This document shows, piece by piece, positions 8,164-61,751 of a stretch of DNA of 64,000 nucleotides (positions are counted from its first letter, which is position 1; each line of letters opens with the position of its first letter). The position numbers and the translations under genes are program-made. A model generated the notes under the pieces. It did not search any database. It saw nothing but the letters and a program-made list of their open reading frames with translations, and was not told where the DNA came from. Location of the stretch: the NCBI RefSeq assembly GCF_056712565.1, contig NZ_CM160072.1, one strand, 5' to 3'.

Positions 8164-8214
8164 TCTTTTATGCCGGGCTATGCCCGGCATGAGACTGATG
8201 ACAAACACAAAACT

Positions 8215-8313
8215 GCCTGATGCGCTACGCTTATCAGGCCTACGTGAACTCTGCAATATATTGAATGTGCATGTTTTTGTAGGCCGGATAAGGCGCTCGC
8301 GCCGCATCCGGCA
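8215..8313. repeat. REP/BIME cluster (two inverted REP units) in the rhlE-ybiA intergenic region
   Basis: gcctgatgcgctacgcttatcaggcctac and gtaggccggataaggcg...cgccgcatccggca are canonical E. coli REP palindromes; preceded by hairpin tgccgggctatgcccggca at 8171-8189. Confidence 0.6.
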
Positions 8314-8395
8314 TTTCACAACAAGCACTTGTCAGCCATTTGCGAGCGCGGCAAAAAGATTTCTCTGTTTTAACGCCCACAAGCCACCCGATGCG

Positions 8396-8590
8396 TTACT
8401 TCTCCGCAGCCAATTGTCCGCGCAACGCCATTAAAAGGTACCCCAGGCGATTCTTGCCCTGACCATTACCGCCATCTCCCCAGTAAGCATCATTTTGCGT
8501 ATGCTCAACCAGTTTTGCGGACGCGGTTGCCCGCAAGAGTGTACGCAGTTCTGCATGTTGTTCGAATTTAGCGCGAAGCGCTTTACGCAT
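8396..8590 (-). pseudogene. ybiA: 5'-truncated remnant of ybiA (NADAR-family N-glycosidase); only the C-terminal ~64 codons are homologous
   Basis: Minus-strand ORF 8396-8701 (101 aa): last 64 aa (MRKALRAKFEQHAEL...DAYWGDGG...GKNRLGYLLM...) match the YbiA C-terminus; first 37 aa are read antisense through the dinG promoter and LexA box up to the dinG ATG. Intact YbiA is about 160 aa. Confidence 0.6.
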
Positions 8591-8666
8591 CATCCTGCTG
8601 GTTATTGCGAGCCGCTTTCCCGAAACAGAAAAACCATTACCCCTGAAAACCGAAAAATGCCACAAT

Positions 8667-10877: not shown

Positions 10878-13066
<2,189 letters not shown>

Positions 13067-13213
13067 AAAAAGCCCGTCCAGTGGCGGACGGGCAAACAAG
13101 GGTAACATAGGATCAATGAGGGTTAGAGCATATGCGTCTGTCGGCAAACAGACAGGGAAATACTTGTGCTGAACGTAGCGTAAACGCCTGATCCAGCCAA
13201 CGGTTCGGATTTT

Positions 13214-13290
13214 GTAGGTCTGATAAGACGCGGTAGCGTCGCATCAGGCATCTGTTGCCGGATGCGGCGTAAACGCCTTATCCGTCCTAC
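13214..13290. repeat. REP/BIME cluster in the hcxB-ybiJ intergenic region
   Basis: gtaggtctgataagacgcggtagcgtcgcatcaggca followed by ccggatgcggcgtaaacgccttatccgtcctac. Confidence 0.6.
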
Positions 13291-13293
13291 GAA

Positions 13294-13554
13294 TTACTTA
13301 TAAATTACCGCAGTACCGCTTAATTTATTGTTGTTGGTGGCAGAAGTGATGCTGTATCCACTGGCACCGGCCGCCGCGGCTTTCTCAGCCAGTTTCGCTT
13401 CCAGGGCATCGAGGGTGGATGCGCCATCGGCAGAAACCACGCCGATTTTATTCATGTTCTGTGCCTGGGATGCCGTTACCGGTTCCGCCGCGAACACGCC
13501 AAATGACAGAGTTGAAAGAGCCATAGCAGCAACAACAGTATTGATAGTTTTCAT
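13294..13554 (-). CDS. ybiJ: YbiJ, small secreted DUF1471 (BhsA/McbA-family) protein (86 aa)
   Basis: Signal peptide MKTINTVVAAMALSTLSFGVFAAE and C-terminal GASGYSITSA...GTAVIYK motif shared with McbA. Confidence 0.88.
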   Translation of the reverse strand: MKTINTVVAAMALSTLSFGVFAAEPVTASQAQNMNKIGVVSADGASTLDALEAKLAEKAAAAGASGYSITSATNNNKLSGTAVIYK

Positions 13555-13818
13555 AATTAATCTCTCGCAGGTGATTTTTGTATAAGTGACGTTGTTTCGT
13601 CGATGTGATGAGTATCACGTTTTTTTACGAGAGATAAAATCGAAGAGAATTGACCGCCTTGTTCAAATAAATTGATTGATATCTAACATACTGATAAACC
13701 ATTTATTTGTTGTATTTATGAATCCGTTTTGTACCGCGTGGTGCTCACGGCAGCGTTAAAGGCACGGAATGCCACGCAAAATACAAATTACACTCACTAA
13801 ACATCCCGTCAGTTGCAG

Positions 13819-14085
13819 TTAACGTAACTGGCTGTCTTTCGAACCTCTGCGATTATATCCTGTATAAGCTGGTTTTTGTAAATCTTTCTCCTGTTGGCAA
13901 TGAATGCATAAGCGCACGCCAGGAATGGCTTCCCGACGGGCCTGCGGGATAGGGGCACCGCACTCTTCACATTCATACAGGCTTTCGCCACGCGGAATTT
14001 CACCCCGAGCGCGGGCAATCGCATCTTCAATTGTACTGTTGATCTGTTCGTTGACGGCGTCATCATTAGCCCAACCGGATGCCAT
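13819..14085 (-). CDS. ybiI: YbiI, DksA/TraR-type C4 zinc-finger protein (88 aa)
   Basis: CxxC...CxxC motif (CEECGAPIPQARREAIPGVRLCIHCQ). Confidence 0.88.
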   Translation of the reverse strand: MASGWANDDAVNEQINSTIEDAIARARGEIPRGESLYECEECGAPIPQARREAIPGVRLCIHCQQEKDLQKPAYTGYNRRGSKDSQLR

Positions 14086-14158
14086 ATCGTCCTCCCCATA
14101 TCAATACTTGTACAGTTAAGTGTAGCTAATATAGGGACGAACTCGGGCAGTTCAAGCG

Positions 14159-14836
14159 TCAGATCTCCGACCATTCCCGCAGCAGATTATGATAAAGATT
14201 GAGCAGTGACAGGATCTCTTCACTTTCGCCGTAGCGGCTTTTCAGCGACTGAATATTGTTGTCCAGTTCAAACAGCATGGCGCGCTTTTTATCATCACGG
14301 ATCATCGACTGGATCCACATAAATGATGCCACTCGCACGCCGCGGGTTACGGGTGTCACGCAATGCAGGCTGCTGGAGGGATACAACACCAGATCGCCTG
14401 CCGGGAGTTTTACCCGATGTTGCCCGAAGGTGTCATTAACGACCAGTTCGCCGCCGTCGTAGCTTTCTGGATCGCTTAAAAACAGCGTGGCAGAAAGGTC
14501 AGTGCGCATCCAGCCGTTTTGTGGATGGCTGCGTACTGCGCCATCCACATGAAAACCATAGGTTTCATTGTTCTGATAGCGATTAAACAGCGGCGTGGAA
14601 AGGGTACGCGGCAAGGCCGCGGCAAAGAACAAAGCATGTTGGTTAACCGCGTTCAGCACCTCATTTTGCAGGGCGGCGTACAGGGCGCTGCGGGTGTCTA
14701 CTTGTTGATTGTTCTTAACTTGCGCACCTTGTGCGCCGGTGGTGACGCGCCCATCCACCCATTCGGCTTGTTCCAGTTGTTCGCGAAAACGGGCGACGTC
14801 CTGTGGCGATAACACGCCGGGAATGTGGTACATCAT
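14159..14836 (-). CDS. ybiX: YbiX, PKHD-type Fe(II)/2-oxoglutarate-dependent hydroxylase (225 aa)
   Basis: Start trimmed to [12 protein letters not shown]; lies immediately downstream of fiu on the same strand (fiu-ybiX operon). Confidence 0.88.
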
Positions 14837-14902
14837 ACAAGTTCTCCAAAAAGTGGGGCCTGCGCCCCACACCGATTTTTAACAGCAGGCAATGGTGCTC
14901 AG

Positions 14903-15002
14903 GTGCCGGATGCGGCGTGAACGCCTTATCCGGCCTACCAAATGATGTGAATTCAGTGTATTGCACAACCTTGTAGGCCTGATAAGCGCAGCGCATCAGG
15001 CA
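14903..15002. repeat. REP/BIME cluster in the ybiX-fiu intergenic region
   Basis: gtgccggatgcggcgtgaacgccttatccggcctac and gtaggcctgataagcgcagcgcatcaggca. Confidence 0.6.
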
Positions 15003-17041
15003 GTCCTGCTCTCGCCATCAACATTAGTGAGCCTTGCGCCCCACATCTGAATCAGAAATGCATATTGGCTGTGAGCAAGAAGGTTCTTGGCTCGCCCGGG
15101 TGATAACGGTAGCCGCTCTTATTGATTGAGGCGACGTAATCGGTATCAAACAGGTTGTAGACGTTTAGCTGGAAGTCGAGATTGCGATTAACCCGATACC
15201 CCAGTTTGGCGTCGGCGACCCAATAACCTTCGGTAAATGCTGGCGTCCCCACCGCGCCGTCTGAACCTTTATGCATACTGCCGATATACCGTGCGCCCGC
15301 ACCAACAGAAATATCATCGGTTGCCTGATACTGGCTCCATAAGGTGAAGGCGTGTTCCGGGGTATACGGCAGCGATGAGGAACCATCCTGGGCAACATCT
15401 TTGCCGTTTTTGATAGTTGCTTTTTGCTGGGTATAGCCGCCAATCATCTGCCACGCGGGAGTGATATTCCCGGCCACGGATATCTCGTAGCCTTCGACAC
15501 GTTTCTTACCATATTGCGAATAAGTCCCGTCATCATTTTGCTCAACTTCATTTTCAATATCAGTACGGAACAGCGCGGCGGTAAGTAGCAGGCGTTTATC
15601 CAGAACCTGCCATTTGGTGCCAATCTCGCTGGTGTTGGCTTTTTGCGGTTTAAAATCGGTGCGGTTGGCACTGTTACCGCTGCCAGACTGCGCAAGGGCG
15701 AAGTTGTTGCCGCCCGGCGGCTGCTGGGAAACGGCATAGTTAATATAGATATTGCCGTTTTCCGTCAGGTGATACAGCGCCCCGGCTTTCCAGTTCACCA
15801 GATTGCCCGACTTGGCGGTGTCGACGGTGGTGACCGGAGAACCTTTTGCCACGCCAGCAGGGCAGGTGATGGCACCGCGCCCGCTGCCGCCGCAGGCGGT
15901 GGCACTGTCATATTCAGTATGATAATTATCCAGACGGATCCCACCGTTCAGCTCAAAATCACGGGTGATTTGCAGCGTATCGAAGGCATAAATTGCGAAG
16001 GTATCCGTCTGACCATTGGCGTTTGCGCCGTTGCGCGTCAGGCCACCGGGATGAATGCTGCTGTCAGGATGATAAATATTTACCGCCGGTAACGTCACCG
16101 GATTAACGCCATAGTTAGTCTGTGTTTCGCGGGTAAATTCCACGCCGGTACTGACATCATGACCGATAGCGCCGGTATAGAACGTCGAGGTCAGGTTGGT
16201 CTGGTTGGTGAGAATTTTGTTACTCACATCTTTGGTATTCGCCGTACGTGACCACGTCCAGCTATTCACATCGCTGGTGGGCTGGGTAATATTCGACGCT
16301 CCACCCATAATCGCCGTCATCAGGTAATCCTGCTTTACGCGCGACCAACGCGTAGTGTTGCGAATGGTGGTGTTATCGTTGATGTCGTGCTCAAAACGCA
16401 TGGTAGCGGTGTCGGTGGTCGAATCGTCGTAATCGGAATCCGTGCCGTAAAAGTTATGAGTATCAACTTTTCCGGAATGATTCAGGGCCGCTGTTCCCGC
16501 AGATGGGGCAGAATAACCCGGTAAACCGATGGTCGGAATGCCGCCGTCTGGCGTGTTGTGTTGGGTGACATGCAGATAATTAAGATACAAACGATTCGCT
16601 GTACCAAGGCCAAAAGCGACAGAAGGGGCGACGCCGTAACGCTCATTTTTGACTTTGTCGCGTCCGGCATCGTGCGTTTTTTCGCCCATTACATTCAGGC
16701 GCACCGCAGTGGTATCACCAATGACCTGATTGACGTCCAGCGTGCCGCGGCGGAACCAGGCGCTGCCAATACTGGCGGAGGCGTCAATGCCGGAATCATT
16801 GCGCGGCTGTTTGCTGATCATATTGATCGAGCCTGTCGGCGCGCTGCGCCCGTAGTCGGTGCCGGACGGCCCTTTAATTACTTCGACCTGCTCGGTATTG
16901 AAGGTGTCGCGCGAGACGCTGCCGATATCGCGAATGCCATCGATATAAATACTGTTAGAGGTATCGGCACCGCGCATATAAATGGCGTCGCCAGTGGTGG
17001 AGTTACCGTTCTCACCCGCAAAAAACGCACCCACGCCGGGG

Positions 17042-18467
17042 TAATGCCGATCAGTTAAGGATCAGTTGACCGATCCAGTGGCTGTGTAAGAATCCGGAAA
17101 CGCTCACTTGTTTCCGGATTTTTTTATGCACATTGGACAGGCTCTTGATCTGGTATCCCGTTACGATTCTCTGCGTAACCCACTGACTTCTCTGGGGGAT
17201 TACCTCGACCCCGAACTCATCTCTCGTTGCCTTGCCGAATCAGGTACTGTAACGCTACGCAAGCGCCGTCTTCCCCTCGAAATGATGGTCTGGTGTATTG
17301 TTGGCATGGCGCTTGAGCGTAAAGAACCTCTTCACCAGATTGTGAATCGCCTGGACATCATGCTGCCGGGCAATCGCCCCTTCGTTGCCCCCAGTGCCGT
17401 TATTCAGGCCCGCCAGCGCCTGGGAAGTGAGGCTGTCCGCCGCGTGTTCACGAAAACAGCGCAGCTCTGGCATAACGCCACGCCGCATCCGCACTGGTGC
17501 GGCCTGACCCTGCTGGCCATCGATGGTGTGTTCTGGCGCACACCGGATACACCAGAGAACGATGCAGCCTTCCCCCGCCAGACACATGCCGGGAACCCGG
17601 CGCTCTACCCGCAGGTCAAAATGGTCTGCCAGATGGAACTGACCAGCCATCTGCTGACGGCTGCAGCCTTCGGCACGATGAAGAACAGCGAAAATGAGCT
17701 TGCTGAGCAACTTATAGAACAAACCGGCGATAACACTCTGACGTTAATGGATAAAGGTTATTACTCACTGGGACTGTTAAATGCCTGGAGCCTGGCGGGA
17801 GAACACCGCCACTGGATGATACCTCTCAGAAAGGGAGCGCAATATGAAGAGATCAGAAAACTGGGTAAAGGCGATCATCTGGTGAAGCTGAAAACCAGCC
17901 CGCAGGCACGAAAAAAGTGGCCGGGACTGGGAAATGAAGTGACTGCCCGCCTGCTGACCGTGACGCGCAAAGGAAAAGTCTGCCATCTGCTGACGTCGAT
18001 GACGGACGCCATGCGCTTCCCCGGAGGAGAAATGGGGGATCTGTACAGTCATCGCTGGGAAATCGAACTGGGATACAGGGAGATAAAACAGACGATGCAA
18101 CGGAGCAGGCTGACGCTGAGAAGTAAAAAGCCGGAGCTTGTGGAGCAAGAGCTGTGGGGTGTCTTACTGGCTTATAATCTGGTGAGATATCAGATGATTA
18201 AAATGGCGGAACATCTGAAAGGTTACTGGCCGAATCAACTGAGTTTCTCAGAATCATGCGGAATGGTGATGAGAATGCTGATAACATTGCAGGGCGCTTC
18301 ACCGGGACGTATACCGGAGCTGATGCGCGATCTTGCAAGTATGGGACAACTTGTGAAATTACCGACAAGAAGGGAAAGGGCCTTCCCGAGAGTGGTAAAG
18401 GAGAGGCCCTGGAAATACCCCACAGCCCCGAAAAAGAGCCAGTCAGTTGCTTAACTGACTGGCATTA
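17042..18467 (+). mobile_element. IS4 insertion sequence (1426 bp) with 18-bp imperfect terminal inverted repeats and a 13-bp target-site duplication
   Basis: Left end taatgccgatcagttaag, right end (reverse complement) taatgccagtcagttaag; direct repeat acccacgccgggg at 17029-17041 and 18468-18480; encodes the IS4 transposase. Confidence 0.92.
17126..18454 (+). CDS. insG: IS4 transposase InsG (442 aa)
   Basis: [33 protein letters not shown]... recognised as IS4 transposase; ORF track starts 6 codons upstream. Confidence 0.92.
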
Positions 18468-18877
18468 ACCCACGCCGGGGACGTTTTTGAGCGCGTCGGT
18501 AAGGTTGGTTGCACCCTGATCTTTAATCACTTGTTCAGAAATCACCGTCATCGTGCGGGTAGTATCCGCTACCGGACGCGAGAATTTCGGATCGGCAGAT
18601 TGTTGTGGCGCATAAAGCGAAGGCGTTGATGCTTCGACAACCAGCGTGTCATCCGCGTTAGCTTGCCCTTCGGCAGCGAGTGCCTGCGCCACAGGCGTAA
18701 TACCAATACAAAGACCGGCAAAGAACGTGAGCGAATGAAATTGTCTGGCAGGGAAATTGCGATTGTTTTCCATTTTGCAGGTGACTTTTTCTTATATGGT
18801 GAAATTTTCACTGTCACGAGAAAGCATCTCTGCGGATGCGATGCCACTGTTAATCCCGTGATAGCGTCCGTGCAAGT

Positions 18878-18902
18878 GATAATAATTTTGATAAGTATTA
18901 TC
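18878..18902. promoter_or_regulatory. Putative Fur box upstream of fiu
   Basis: gataataattttgataagtattatc resembles the Fur consensus gataatgataatcattatc; about 105 bp upstream of the fiu start codon. Confidence 0.45.
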
Positions 18903-19037
18903 ACTTGGCGCGATTTTCTATCACCCATTGCGCGAAAAAGAAATACATTTATTTACATTGCGTTCATATTTGATGTTTTTTGCTTACAAATCGGACGAAA
19001 ACTGCATCCAGAGGCGAATGCAGTTACGTTGGTGGGG

Positions 19038-19298
19038 TTATTTGTAGATGATTGCAGTACCGAACATCTGGTCATTTCCGCCTGCGGAATTAATGACATA
19101 ACCTTTCGCGCCTTGTTCGCGCGCTTTTTCTGCCAGTTTATCCTCCAGATCGCTTAGGTTTGATGCGCCAGTTGCCGAAACGGTACCGGCGGGCCGTAGT
19201 TGACCACTGTCCAGGTTACTCATCGGTTGCGCGGCATAAGCCGTGAGAGAGATTCCGCTCAGGACGGTGGCAATCAGTAGTGTGAGGCACTTTTTCAT
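19038..19298 (-). CDS. mcbA: McbA/YbiM, small periplasmic DUF1471 protein (86 aa)
   Basis: Start trimmed to MKKCLTLLIATVLSGISLTAYA (signal peptide); C-terminal GAKGYVINSAGG...GTAIIYK. Confidence 0.88.
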   Translation of the reverse strand: MKKCLTLLIATVLSGISLTAYAAQPMSNLDSGQLRPAGTVSATGASNLSDLEDKLAEKAREQGAKGYVINSAGGNDQMFGTAIIYK

Positions 19299-22722: not shown

Positions 22723-22838
22723 GACTCCTCCAGTGAGAAAATAGAGCAAAAAGATAAGTATAGATGCTGGAGGCTGGGCGATTTTAAATGAGAGGAATCT
22801 GGTGTGCCTCCCTTTCGGGGGAAAGGGAGGCTGAGAAG

Positions 22839-23561
22839 TTAAGAGACGTGCTGCAAAAATTCCTGCAAGCGCTGGCTCGGTGGGTTCTTGATCAACACCT
22901 GCGGATCGCCATCTTCCGCAATCCGGCCTTTGTCGATAAAGATCAGGCGCGAAGCTACTTTCTCGGCAAAACCGATTTCGTGTGTCACGATCACCATCGT
23001 CATCCCTTCTTCAGCCAGATCCTGCATAACCTTCAGCACTTCATGGCGCAGTTCCGGGTCAAGAGCGGAAGTCGGTTCATCAAACAGCATCATTTTCGGC
23101 TTCACCGCCAGCGCGCGGGCAATCGCCACACGCTGCTGTTGACCACCAGAAAGTTCGGAAGGGTAGTGATGTGCACGTTCTGCCAGACCGACTTTCGCCA
23201 GGAGCTCACGCGCCAGTTTTTCCGCCTCTTCTTTATTCGCGCCACGCACGCGTAGCGGGCCAAACATGACGTTTTCCAGCGCCGTCAGATGCGGGAAGAG
23301 GTAAAACTGCTGGAACACCATACCCGCTTCCTGGCGAATCAGGCGCTCATCAACTTTCGGATCGTTAACCTTCAGGCCATCGACAATCAGATCGCCGGAG
23401 GTGATTTCTTCCAGTTTGTTGATGCAGCGCAGCAGGGTCGATTTACCGGAACCGGACGGCCCGATAATCACCACGACTTCGCCCTGAGCAATGTTCAAAT
23501 CGATATTGTGCAGCACCTGGGTTGGACCAAAATGCTTGGAGACGTTTTTAAATTCAATCAC
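22839..23561 (-). CDS. glnQ: Glutamine ABC transporter ATP-binding protein GlnQ (240 aa)
   Basis: Walker [10 protein letters not shown], signature LSGGQQQRV, Walker [11 protein letters not shown]. Confidence 0.95.
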
Positions 23562-60935: not shown

Positions 60936-61751
60936 TTATTGGTTAAATGGCGCTTCGTGTTTAAGCACTTTATCGATCACATCCAGTACGCCTTCACGGT
61001 TATTGGAGCCTGCCCGGTATTTTGCCGCTGCGACGACCGCGCTGCCGGCATTTTCCATTGCAAAACTAAAGCCTGCCTGACGCAGCATCTCAATATCGTT
61101 ACCGCCATCGCCAAAGACCACCACTTCGCTGTCGTCTATTCCCCATAATTTCTGCAGTTGGCGAAGGCCATTGGCTTTATGTACACCGGGGATAATCAGA
61201 TCGATGCTGCCGTTGCCGGTATGGACCGGTACCATGATATCGCCGATGGCCTCATGTAATGCTTTTTGCACTTGTGGGATCAGTTCGTCAGAGAGATTAA
61301 GGCCAAATTTAAAGAAGATATCTTCTAAGTTGTCAAAGTTATCGACGTATTCCAGACGGTGATAATACATTTCCGCCACCGTTTTCATGGCATCGTCATA
61401 TTTTTTGAGGGTATAGGCGCTATTTTTTCCGCAGGCAATAATTTCCACTTCCGGGCGCGTCAGCAAATGTTCTACGACAGTAGTAAACGCATCCTTCGAC
61501 AGCTCGCCATTAAAAACATCTTTGCCTTCGCTCACTACCCAGCCGCCGTTTTCAGCCACAAAGGCAATTTCATTAGCAATTTCAGGAAAGAAAGAGATCA
61601 ACTGATAATATTGATTCCCGCTGGCGACCACAAAGCGAATGCCTTGTGCTTTCATTTGCTGATACTGAGCCATAAACCGCTCACGGTTATAGGTTTTTTG
61701 ATCGCTTAAGAAAGTACCATCCATGTCTACCGCAATTAATTTAATGCTCAT
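60936..61751 (-). CDS. ybjI: HAD-superfamily phosphatase YbjI (Cof type, 271 aa)
   Basis: Start at second Met ([15 protein letters not shown]); strong paralogy to ybiV. Confidence 0.92.
   Translation of the reverse strand: MSIKLIAVDMDGTFLSDQKTYNRERFMAQYQQMKAQGIRFVVASGNQYYQLISFFPEIANEIAFVAENGGWVVSEGKDVFNGELSKDAFTTVVEHLLTRPEVEIIACGKNSAYTLKKYDDAMKTVAEMYYHRLEYVDNFDNLEDIFFKFGLNLSDELIPQVQKALHEAIGDIMVPVHTGNGSIDLIIPGVHKANGLRQLQKLWGIDDSEVVVFGDGGNDIEMLRQAGFSFAMENAGSAVVAAAKYRAGSNNREGVLDVIDKVLKHEAPFNQ

Follow-up and report, generated by a model that had tools for sequence, protein, structure and literature searches.

Proteins of the DUF1471 (YhcN, BhsA/McbA) family are small, exported envelope proteins restricted to Enterobacterales, which share a length of about 86-91 amino acids (aa), an N-terminal signal peptide, a C-terminal GTA.IYK core and an alpha/beta fold resembling that of RcsF; ten paralogues are encoded in Escherichia coli, with YbiJ and McbA among the named members (Eletsky et al. 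2014, PMC4092069). BhsA, McbA, BsmA and YhcN influence stress resistance and biofilm formation; mcbA, which is repressed by McbR/YncC, causes colanic-acid mucoidy when over-expressed (PMC4092069). Growth of the family by duplication, and the existence of adjacent pairs of its members, have been noted as well (PMC4092069). YbiJ is Sec-exported, enriched in the envelope and induced by acid and other stresses, and has been stated to be a paralog of McbA (bioRxiv 10.1101/2025.02.11.637708); both proteins are described as Sec-exported or periplasmic (bioRxiv 10.1101/2025.02.11.637708; PMC4092069). Here we analyze ybiJ and mcbA in a 64,000-nucleotide stretch of E. coli DNA (contig NZ_CM160072.1 of RefSeq assembly GCF_056712565.1; hereafter, the window), where the two genes lie on either side of fiu, ybiX and ybiI, along with a second paralog pair in the same window, ybiV and ybjI. 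The position of ybiJ and mcbA favours an old local duplication, to which we assign a probability of roughly 0.6, even though their sequences do not single them out as sisters.

Positions 13294-19298 of the window correspond to the hcxB-rlmF region of E. coli, in which ybiJ, ybiI, ybiX, fiu and mcbA are all encoded on the minus strand. The description of the pair in an earlier, sequence-only reading of this DNA proved accurate: ybiJ (13294-13554) and mcbA (also known as ybiM; 19038-19298) each encode 86 aa on that strand, with exact coordinates, and both the signal peptide and the motif GxxGYxIxSA...GTA(V/I)IYK can be read from the YbiJ and McbA sequences. The two genes are supported by open reading frames (ORFs), RefSeq, Pfam and NCBIfam; the mechanically predicted mcbA ORF extends to 19442, and RefSeq annotates the 86-aa form. 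By eye, both N-termini show MK, followed by a hydrophobic run of about 15 residues, with an A-x-A-type site at positions 20-22. The C-terminal motif is found across the family, in an alignment that includes BhsA, YhcN and YahO, and is not specific to the pair. YbiJ and McbA share 40 of 86 residues (46.5%) in a gapless BLASTP alignment with E=3e-23, and match PF07338 (YdgH_BhsA-like, formerly DUF1471) with 64.8 and 70.6 bits, respectively, at a gathering score of 27. Each protein is also recovered by its own NCBIfam model (173.1 for YbiJ with NF007611 and 171.7 for McbA with NF040473, cut-off 110), and scores below this cut-off on the model of the other (80.6 and 76). The DUF1471 family profile matches the solved structures 2noc (E=1e-25) and 2ma4 (E=2e-21), as well as 2jna and 2ma8. 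The other eight DUF1471 genes of K-12 were retrieved, for a total of ten that agrees with PMC4092069. One E. coli YbiJ variant (P0001, 114 aa) contains an internal tandem duplication of 28 residues, a ASTLDALEAKLAEKAAAAGASGYSITS-type segment.

The sequence-only reading regarded both gene pairs as local duplicates and named, as evidence to the contrary, an identity within the range expected for unrelated family members. For ybiJ and mcbA, the paralogy holds, and yet alignment yielded exactly such a result, the 46.5% identity of the two proteins falling within the range of unlinked family members. YbiJ is just as similar to BhsA (46.5% identity; 73.6 bits, vs 73.2 bits for McbA), McbA and BhsA are 43% identical, and YbiJ and YhcN are 44.8% identical, with bhsA located about 330 kb and yhcN about 2.1 Mb from ybiJ on the circular K-12 chromosome. 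Although the best paralog match of McbA is YbiJ, the margin is only 2 bits, and the two genes are not each other's closest paralog in the genome. The BhsA model scores YbiJ at 116 bits and McbA at 101 bits, compared with 81 and 76 bits for the cross-model matches within the pair, and the mean identity across orthologues is higher for YbiJ-BhsA (47-49%) than for YbiJ-McbA (43-44%). In neighbour-joining trees with bootstrap, built for 21 McbA, 24 YbiJ and 12 BhsA orthologues plus outgroups, each of the three subfamilies is monophyletic (81-98%), and their grouping receives 25-36% for YbiJ+McbA, 18-34% for YbiJ+BhsA and about 10% for McbA+BhsA. Four-point quartets, which tolerate unequal rates, are divided 0.37/0.31/0.32 (0.37 for YbiJ+McbA and 0.32 for McbA+BhsA), in effect a star. 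Furthermore, mcbA is patchily distributed, not being present in Salmonella, Klebsiella michiganensis, Superficieibacter and Pseudocitrobacter, which would fit a later acquisition. These observations count against a local duplication of ybiJ and mcbA. A homologue search seeded with YbiJ returned YbiJ orthologues only.

If the two genes do descend from a local duplication, it must have been an ancient one, because the third codon positions of ybiJ and mcbA are 27.6% identical, that is, random, with synonymous sites saturated; the same codon is used at 13 of the 40 residues conserved between the proteins; the longest in-register exact run is 9 nucleotides (nt), at a DNA identity of 49%; and outside the coding sequence the two loci show no similarity. 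Neither gene conversion nor shared non-coding sequence was detected between them: at most 22 positions match in any 30-nt segment, and the similarity of the flanks is insignificant. Judged from their sequences, YbiJ, McbA and BhsA would represent an ancient three-way split with a star-like topology, from which no local duplication is apparent. Because the unlinked bhsA is equally close to ybiJ, percent identity is no basis for regarding ybiJ and mcbA as local duplicates, and because sequence does not single out YbiJ+McbA, the case for their local duplication is a purely positional one. The sequence-only reading thus stands on paralogy for both pairs and on local origin for ybiV and ybjI, which are clear sister paralogs (see below), whereas local origin for ybiJ and mcbA has to be argued from position.

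A scan of one genome per species identified 24 loci, from about 10 genera, that contain ybiJ in the dinG-ybiB context; two further species, Salmonella and K. michiganensis, were added by exact-protein look-up. Both mcbA and ybiJ are present at 21 of the 24 syntenic loci, mostly in the arrangement mcbA-ybiI-ybiJ with nothing else in between. At these loci, mcbA adjoins rlmF (in Escherichia, Citrobacter, Enterobacter, Lelliottia, Pluralibacter and Pseudescherichia), and its distance to ybiI/ybiJ ranges from 0.2-0.5 kb up to 8 kb. The pairing of ybiI with ybiJ is nearly invariant across the relatives. In Pluralibacter gergoviae, mcbA is located directly beside ybiJ, 445 bp apart, without ybiI, and no ybiI remnant was found in the mcbA-ybiJ spacer. 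In the four taxa without mcbA, no remnants of this gene were detected at E<=0.1, so that loss and original absence are indistinguishable there.

The family as a whole is clustered in the K-12 genome. Seven of the 10 DUF1471 genes have another family member within 30 kb (P=0.0008 by simulation), and four pairs are found within 10 kb, against an expectation of 0.19, the P values over the tests ranging from 0.0005 to 0.003. The clusters consist of the adjacent yjfN-bsmA with yjfY 8 kb off, rclB/yahO (28 kb) and ybiJ/mcbA (4.1 kb). Local origin is the most likely reading because the neighbourhood is conserved across Enterobacteriaceae and because the family clusters non-randomly. Under this scenario, the ancient paralogs ybiJ and mcbA would have been neighbours since before the lineages of Escherichia, Citrobacter, Enterobacter and Pluralibacter diverged; the usual order is mcbA-ybiI-ybiJ, bounded by rlmF on the mcbA side and by ybiB on the ybiJ side; and the old local duplication would have been followed by divergence into separate transcription units. 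Yersinia was considered as a possible pre-duplication state, and turned out to be uninformative, given that its only match, a gene resembling both YbiJ and BhsA, has an unrelated genomic setting: in Yersinia alsatica (locus L030, 10001-10258), a gene about 51-53% identical to both YbiJ and BhsA is located between pyrF-yciH and lapB-lapA, where E. coli has no DUF1471 gene.

According to the sequence-only reading, the pair brackets a fiu-ybiX-ybiI block and shows how the region was built. The positions are as described; however, the block is not intact, fiu being interrupted by an IS4 element at 17042-18467, and the bracket is misleading as a guide to the history of the region, in which mcbA-ybiI-ybiJ form the core and fiu-ybiX varies independently of mcbA. 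Within the scan, E. coli and four of the six Citrobacter loci are the only ones with fiu-ybiX between mcbA and ybiI, and they have no other content there. Enterobacter, Lelliottia, C. werkmanii and C. youngae ATCC 29220 possess mcbA without fiu-ybiX and, likewise, without additional genes. The same combination is accompanied by a flavin reductase gene in P. gergoviae (L031, 8522-9136), which lacks ybiI, and in Pseudescherichia vulneris by a 7.6-kb cluster (L020, 1806-9449) that encodes a LysR regulator, a branched-chain (Liv)-type ABC transporter, an ATC hydrolase and an M20 peptidase. K. michiganensis and Pseudocitrobacter lack mcbA and have the arrangement fiu-ybiX-ybiI-ybiJ, the former with a flavin reductase gene (L043, 3457-4071) and the latter with unrelated genes upstream of fiu. 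Finally, mcbA and fiu-ybiX are both absent from Superficieibacter, which has a flavin reductase gene (L022, 8475-9110), and from Salmonella, with no other content. The flavin reductase gene adjoins rlmF in Klebsiella, Pluralibacter and Superficieibacter.

In E. albertii, which has mcbA and only remnants of fiu-ybiX (L008, 5221-7000), 17 bp from the 3' end of ybiX and 36 bp of fiu 5' coding sequence persist, and the absence of fiu-ybiX is therefore a secondary deletion. E. albertii also lacks ybiO. The bracket is secondary: fiu-ybiX is an optional insert in a variable slot within an older core. A two-gene catecholate-iron cassette, fiu-ybiX would thus occupy the slot between mcbA and ybiI and come and go without regard to mcbA. 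More generally, the rlmF-ybiJ interval can be considered a variable slot in Enterobacteriaceae in which only mcbA-ybiI-ybiJ are stable.

The strongest competitor of an old local duplication is that mcbA arose from a bhsA-like gene, either through dispersed duplication or through horizontal transfer among Enterobacteriaceae, with the newcomer landing beside rlmF and its proximity to ybiJ being coincidental or a consequence of the variability of the interval. We consider this scenario unlikely, although it deserves to be taken seriously. McbA scores 101 bits on the BhsA model and 76 on the YbiJ model, the second-best E. coli match of most McbA-like cluster representatives is BhsA rather than YbiJ, BhsA-like clusters make up the largest group (56 of 142), and the best match of YbiM in Salmonella is YcfR/BhsA, at 47% (PMC4092069). 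However, BhsA evolves slowly (85-92% identity across genera) and McbA fast (58-73%), so that raw scores favour BhsA whatever the history, and the McbA+BhsA clade is the least supported of the three, with its bootstrap of about 10% and 0.32 of the quartets. The patchy distribution of mcbA, without remnants where the gene is absent, and the uptake of unrelated genes by the interval (the flavin reductase gene and the ABC-transporter cluster) are also compatible with an arrival from elsewhere, but landing within about 4 kb of a family member is improbable, with only 0.10 pairs within 5 kb expected genome-wide.

A different possibility is that ybiJ and mcbA serve as direct repeats that delimit a mobile or recombining cassette for iron uptake, which would make the bracket a functional unit. 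The genes flank fiu-ybiX-ybiI in the same orientation, and the content between them differs among genera; nevertheless, this explanation is highly improbable. The 49% DNA identity and the 9-nt longest shared run are far too little for homologous recombination, the fiu-ybiX deletion in E. albertii left ybiI and both DUF1471 genes whole, Klebsiella has fiu-ybiX without mcbA, and no chimeric ybiJ/mcbA genes were seen among the 21 mcbA and 24 ybiJ orthologues; these data contradict a role of the two genes as recombination boundaries. Least credible of all, to the point of being negligible, is a chance or compositional resemblance of YbiJ and McbA. Both proteins are indeed short, with signal peptides of similar composition, but the BLASTP E value over the full length without gaps excludes this explanation, both proteins score more than 35 bits above the Pfam gathering score in the mature domain, and the DUF1471 profile matches the structures 2noc and 2ma4.

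The ybiV/ybjI pair is far more clear-cut. The sequence-only reading correctly placed these paralogs in one window, with starts 26.1 kb apart, and underestimated their similarity: the roughly 60% identity that it gave for the N-terminal 50 residues is in fact 37/50, or 74%. YbiV (34853-35668, minus strand), a Cof-type HAD-IIB sugar phosphatase, and YbjI (60936-61751, minus strand), a Cof-type HAD-IIB phosphatase, are 52% identical over 270 aa (E=2e-103, 289 bits), compared with at most 26% and 69 bits for matches to YidA, YbhA, YigL and Cof, so that this pair lies well outside the range of unrelated family members that the sequence-only reading had named as counter-evidence. On the YedP family model, through which YedP was compared, YbiV and YbjI score only 22-33 bits. 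Both proteins belong to the Cof-type HAD-IIB family, with TIGR00099 matches of 219.8 bits (YbiV) and 193.4 bits (YbjI) above the cut-off of 137 and with the DxDGT nucleophile motif, DMDGT in both, at residues 9-13 in the numbering of the 271-aa ATG form (the YbjI motif appears one residue later when the 272-aa ORF is used as the query); they differ from the other five Cof-type enzymes as a distinct pair. By sequence comparison, YbiV and YbjI are unambiguously sister paralogs, each the closest paralog of the other. Two given genes are found within 26 kb of each other by chance only about 1.1% of the time, which makes regional duplication a reasonable inference, and the third-position identity of 40% indicates that this duplication is old. 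An all-against-all comparison of the window ORFs yielded no other flanking paralog pairs indicative of a segmental duplication around ybiV and ybjI. An old regional duplication is the probable source of the two genes, a sister pair of Cof-type HAD phosphatases.

The window is not K-12: aligned with K-12 MG1655, it shows about 97% identity and contains a 1426-bp insertion at 17042-18467 that the sequence-only reading had missed. This insertion is an IS4 element on the plus strand, with imperfect 18-bp terminal inverted repeats and a transposase ORF at 17108-18454 (plus strand); the duplicated target of 13 bp, ACCCACGCCGGGG, occupies 17029-17041 and 18468-18480. The RefSeq annotation of the closest genome labels the identical element an IS4 family transposase and shows fiu split by it into two pseudogene fragments. 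Here, the 5' fragment (18468-18773, minus strand) spans codons 1-102, that is, the signal peptide and the start of the plug domain, and the 3' fragment (15052-17041, minus strand), a pseudogene, extends from about codon 99 to the stop codon. When IS4 and either copy of the duplication are deleted in silico, a Fiu ORF of 760 residues is restored, and the window flanks of the insertion are 100.0% identical to those of the type strain DSM 30083, in which fiu is intact. The insertion point lies within fiu codons 98-102, in the plug domain, and Fiu is accordingly predicted to be non-functional in this strain. The fiu promoter region (18774-19037, minus strand), 75-78% conserved in K. michiganensis and Pseudocitrobacter, includes a promoter-like site at 18924-18897 upstream of fiu that is overlapped by A/T-rich GATAAT-type repeats recognized by eye. 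No match to the 19-mer Fur-box consensus with three or fewer mismatches was found anywhere in the window, so that Fur regulation of fiu rests on the literature and these repeats. Fur-driven read-through into ybiX has probably been lost through the IS4 insertion.

Of 5426 complete E. coli genomes, 31 contain the left IS4 junction of the window at 100% identity over 80 bp, and their flanks are 97.4-99.5% identical to those of the window. In strain HS13-1, which matches the window at 99.9% in the flanks, IS4 occupies this site in the opposite orientation and is accompanied by a 12-bp duplication; at least 30 further genomes share that junction. In the K-12 derivative Origami2-DE3 (NZ_CP084529.1), where 4040 bp of flank match K-12 at 100.000%, an IS4 end is located at the identical fiu nucleotide; the junction is followed by 56 bp of the IS4 left end and then by nikR-nikE (L045, 4041-4303), which suggests an IS4-associated rearrangement or deletion. 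Altogether, fiu::IS4 is found in at least 61 of the 5426 genomes (about 1.1%), in either orientation and on different haplotypes. These are at least three independent insertion events, and the presence of IS4 at one fiu site on different haplotypes and in both orientations identifies a recurrent target; that the site is an IS4 insertion hot spot is well supported.

Insertion sequence IS4 is known for a strong target preference. The native fiu target consists of ACCCACGCCGGGG preceded by AAAAAACGC and followed by ACGTTTTT, so that the duplicated segment is flanked by an A-run and a T-run, and the flanks of other E. coli IS4 sites are 86-92% similar to it, in keeping with this preference. The element itself conforms to IS4 as described, with its 1426 bp, its 18-bp imperfect inverted repeats and a duplication of 12 or 13 bp, against the known 11-13 bp. 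Catechol-type siderophore antibiotics and some colicins can enter through Fiu, the loss of which might for this reason be advantageous. With ACCCACGCCGGGG as a natural hot spot at which IS4 repeatedly knocks out Fiu in unrelated E. coli lineages, we suggest, tentatively and with considerable doubt, that the knock-outs may persist owing to such an advantage and not just through the preference of IS4 for this target.

Directly 3' of the ybiJ stop codon, there is a REP-type element (13217-13287, minus strand; Rfam naRNA4, RF02564, 72.7 bits at a gathering score of 59.5), and further downstream, the 3' end of the ybiJ transcription unit, equivalent to the K-12 small RNA (sRNA) ZbiJ, maps to 13065-13161 (minus strand) when the K-12 annotation is transferred through the window/K-12 alignment. 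A terminator scan located the strong intrinsic terminator of ybiJ on the same strand, with the stem at 13072-13093 followed by a T-run. In the K-12 annotation, bhsA, too, has a 3'-end sRNA (BhsB). Upstream of ybiJ are ybiI (13819-14085, minus strand), encoding a DksA/TraR-type C4 zinc-finger protein (PF01258, 47 bits), and ybiX (14159-14836, minus strand), encoding a PKHD-type Fe(II)/2-oxoglutarate hydroxylase (PF13640 and PF18331; RefSeq annotation). The ybiX-fiu spacer contains an insert of about 160 bp (14872-15030, no strand assigned), visible as a gap in the window/K-12 alignment and including GCCGGATGCGGCGTGAACGCCTTATCCGGCCTAC, which we take to be a REP/BIME-type sequence; in K-12, which lacks this insert, ybiX and fiu are 41 bp apart.

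Several other differences from K-12 are scattered over the window. At about 8586-8597, some 287 bp that comprise the 5' part of ybiA and the sequence upstream of it (K-12 L037, 10670-10956) are missing, and ybiA appears to be truncated. A 143-bp stretch at 8195-8336 is 85% identical to the K-12 ybiT-ybiU sequence (L037, 35597-35737) and is probably a dispersed REP/BIME-type repeat. At 22830-22839, about 150 bp of the K-12 ybiO-glnQ spacer are missing, and at 34813-34860, ybiU (DUF1479, about 1.5 kb between ybiT and ybiV in K-12) is absent, with about 46 bp in its place.

The paralogy of ybiJ with mcbA and of ybiV with ybjI was already established in the annotation and literature on K-12, as the sequence-only reading acknowledged, and only the recurrent insertion of IS4 into fiu is mildly new; no report of this site as a recurrent IS4 target was found in the searchable literature. 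Recurrent fiu::IS4 could matter whenever the status of siderophore receptors, for example, with respect to catechol-cephalosporin uptake, is inferred from gene presence alone.

Within the DUF1471 family, YbiJ, McbA and BhsA, at 43-47% mutual identity, form a tighter subgroup than would follow from the 20-40% quoted between subfamilies (PMC4092069). The closest parallels to the ybiJ/mcbA neighbourhood are yjfN-bsmA(-yjfY) of E. coli and, in Salmonella, yhcN and a ycfR-like gene, likewise neighbours from the same family that have been taken as evidence of local duplication (PMC4092069). Unlike those adjacent pairs, among which they are not cited, ybiJ and mcbA have unrelated genes between them: at least ybiI in nearly all species, and four such genes in E. 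coli.

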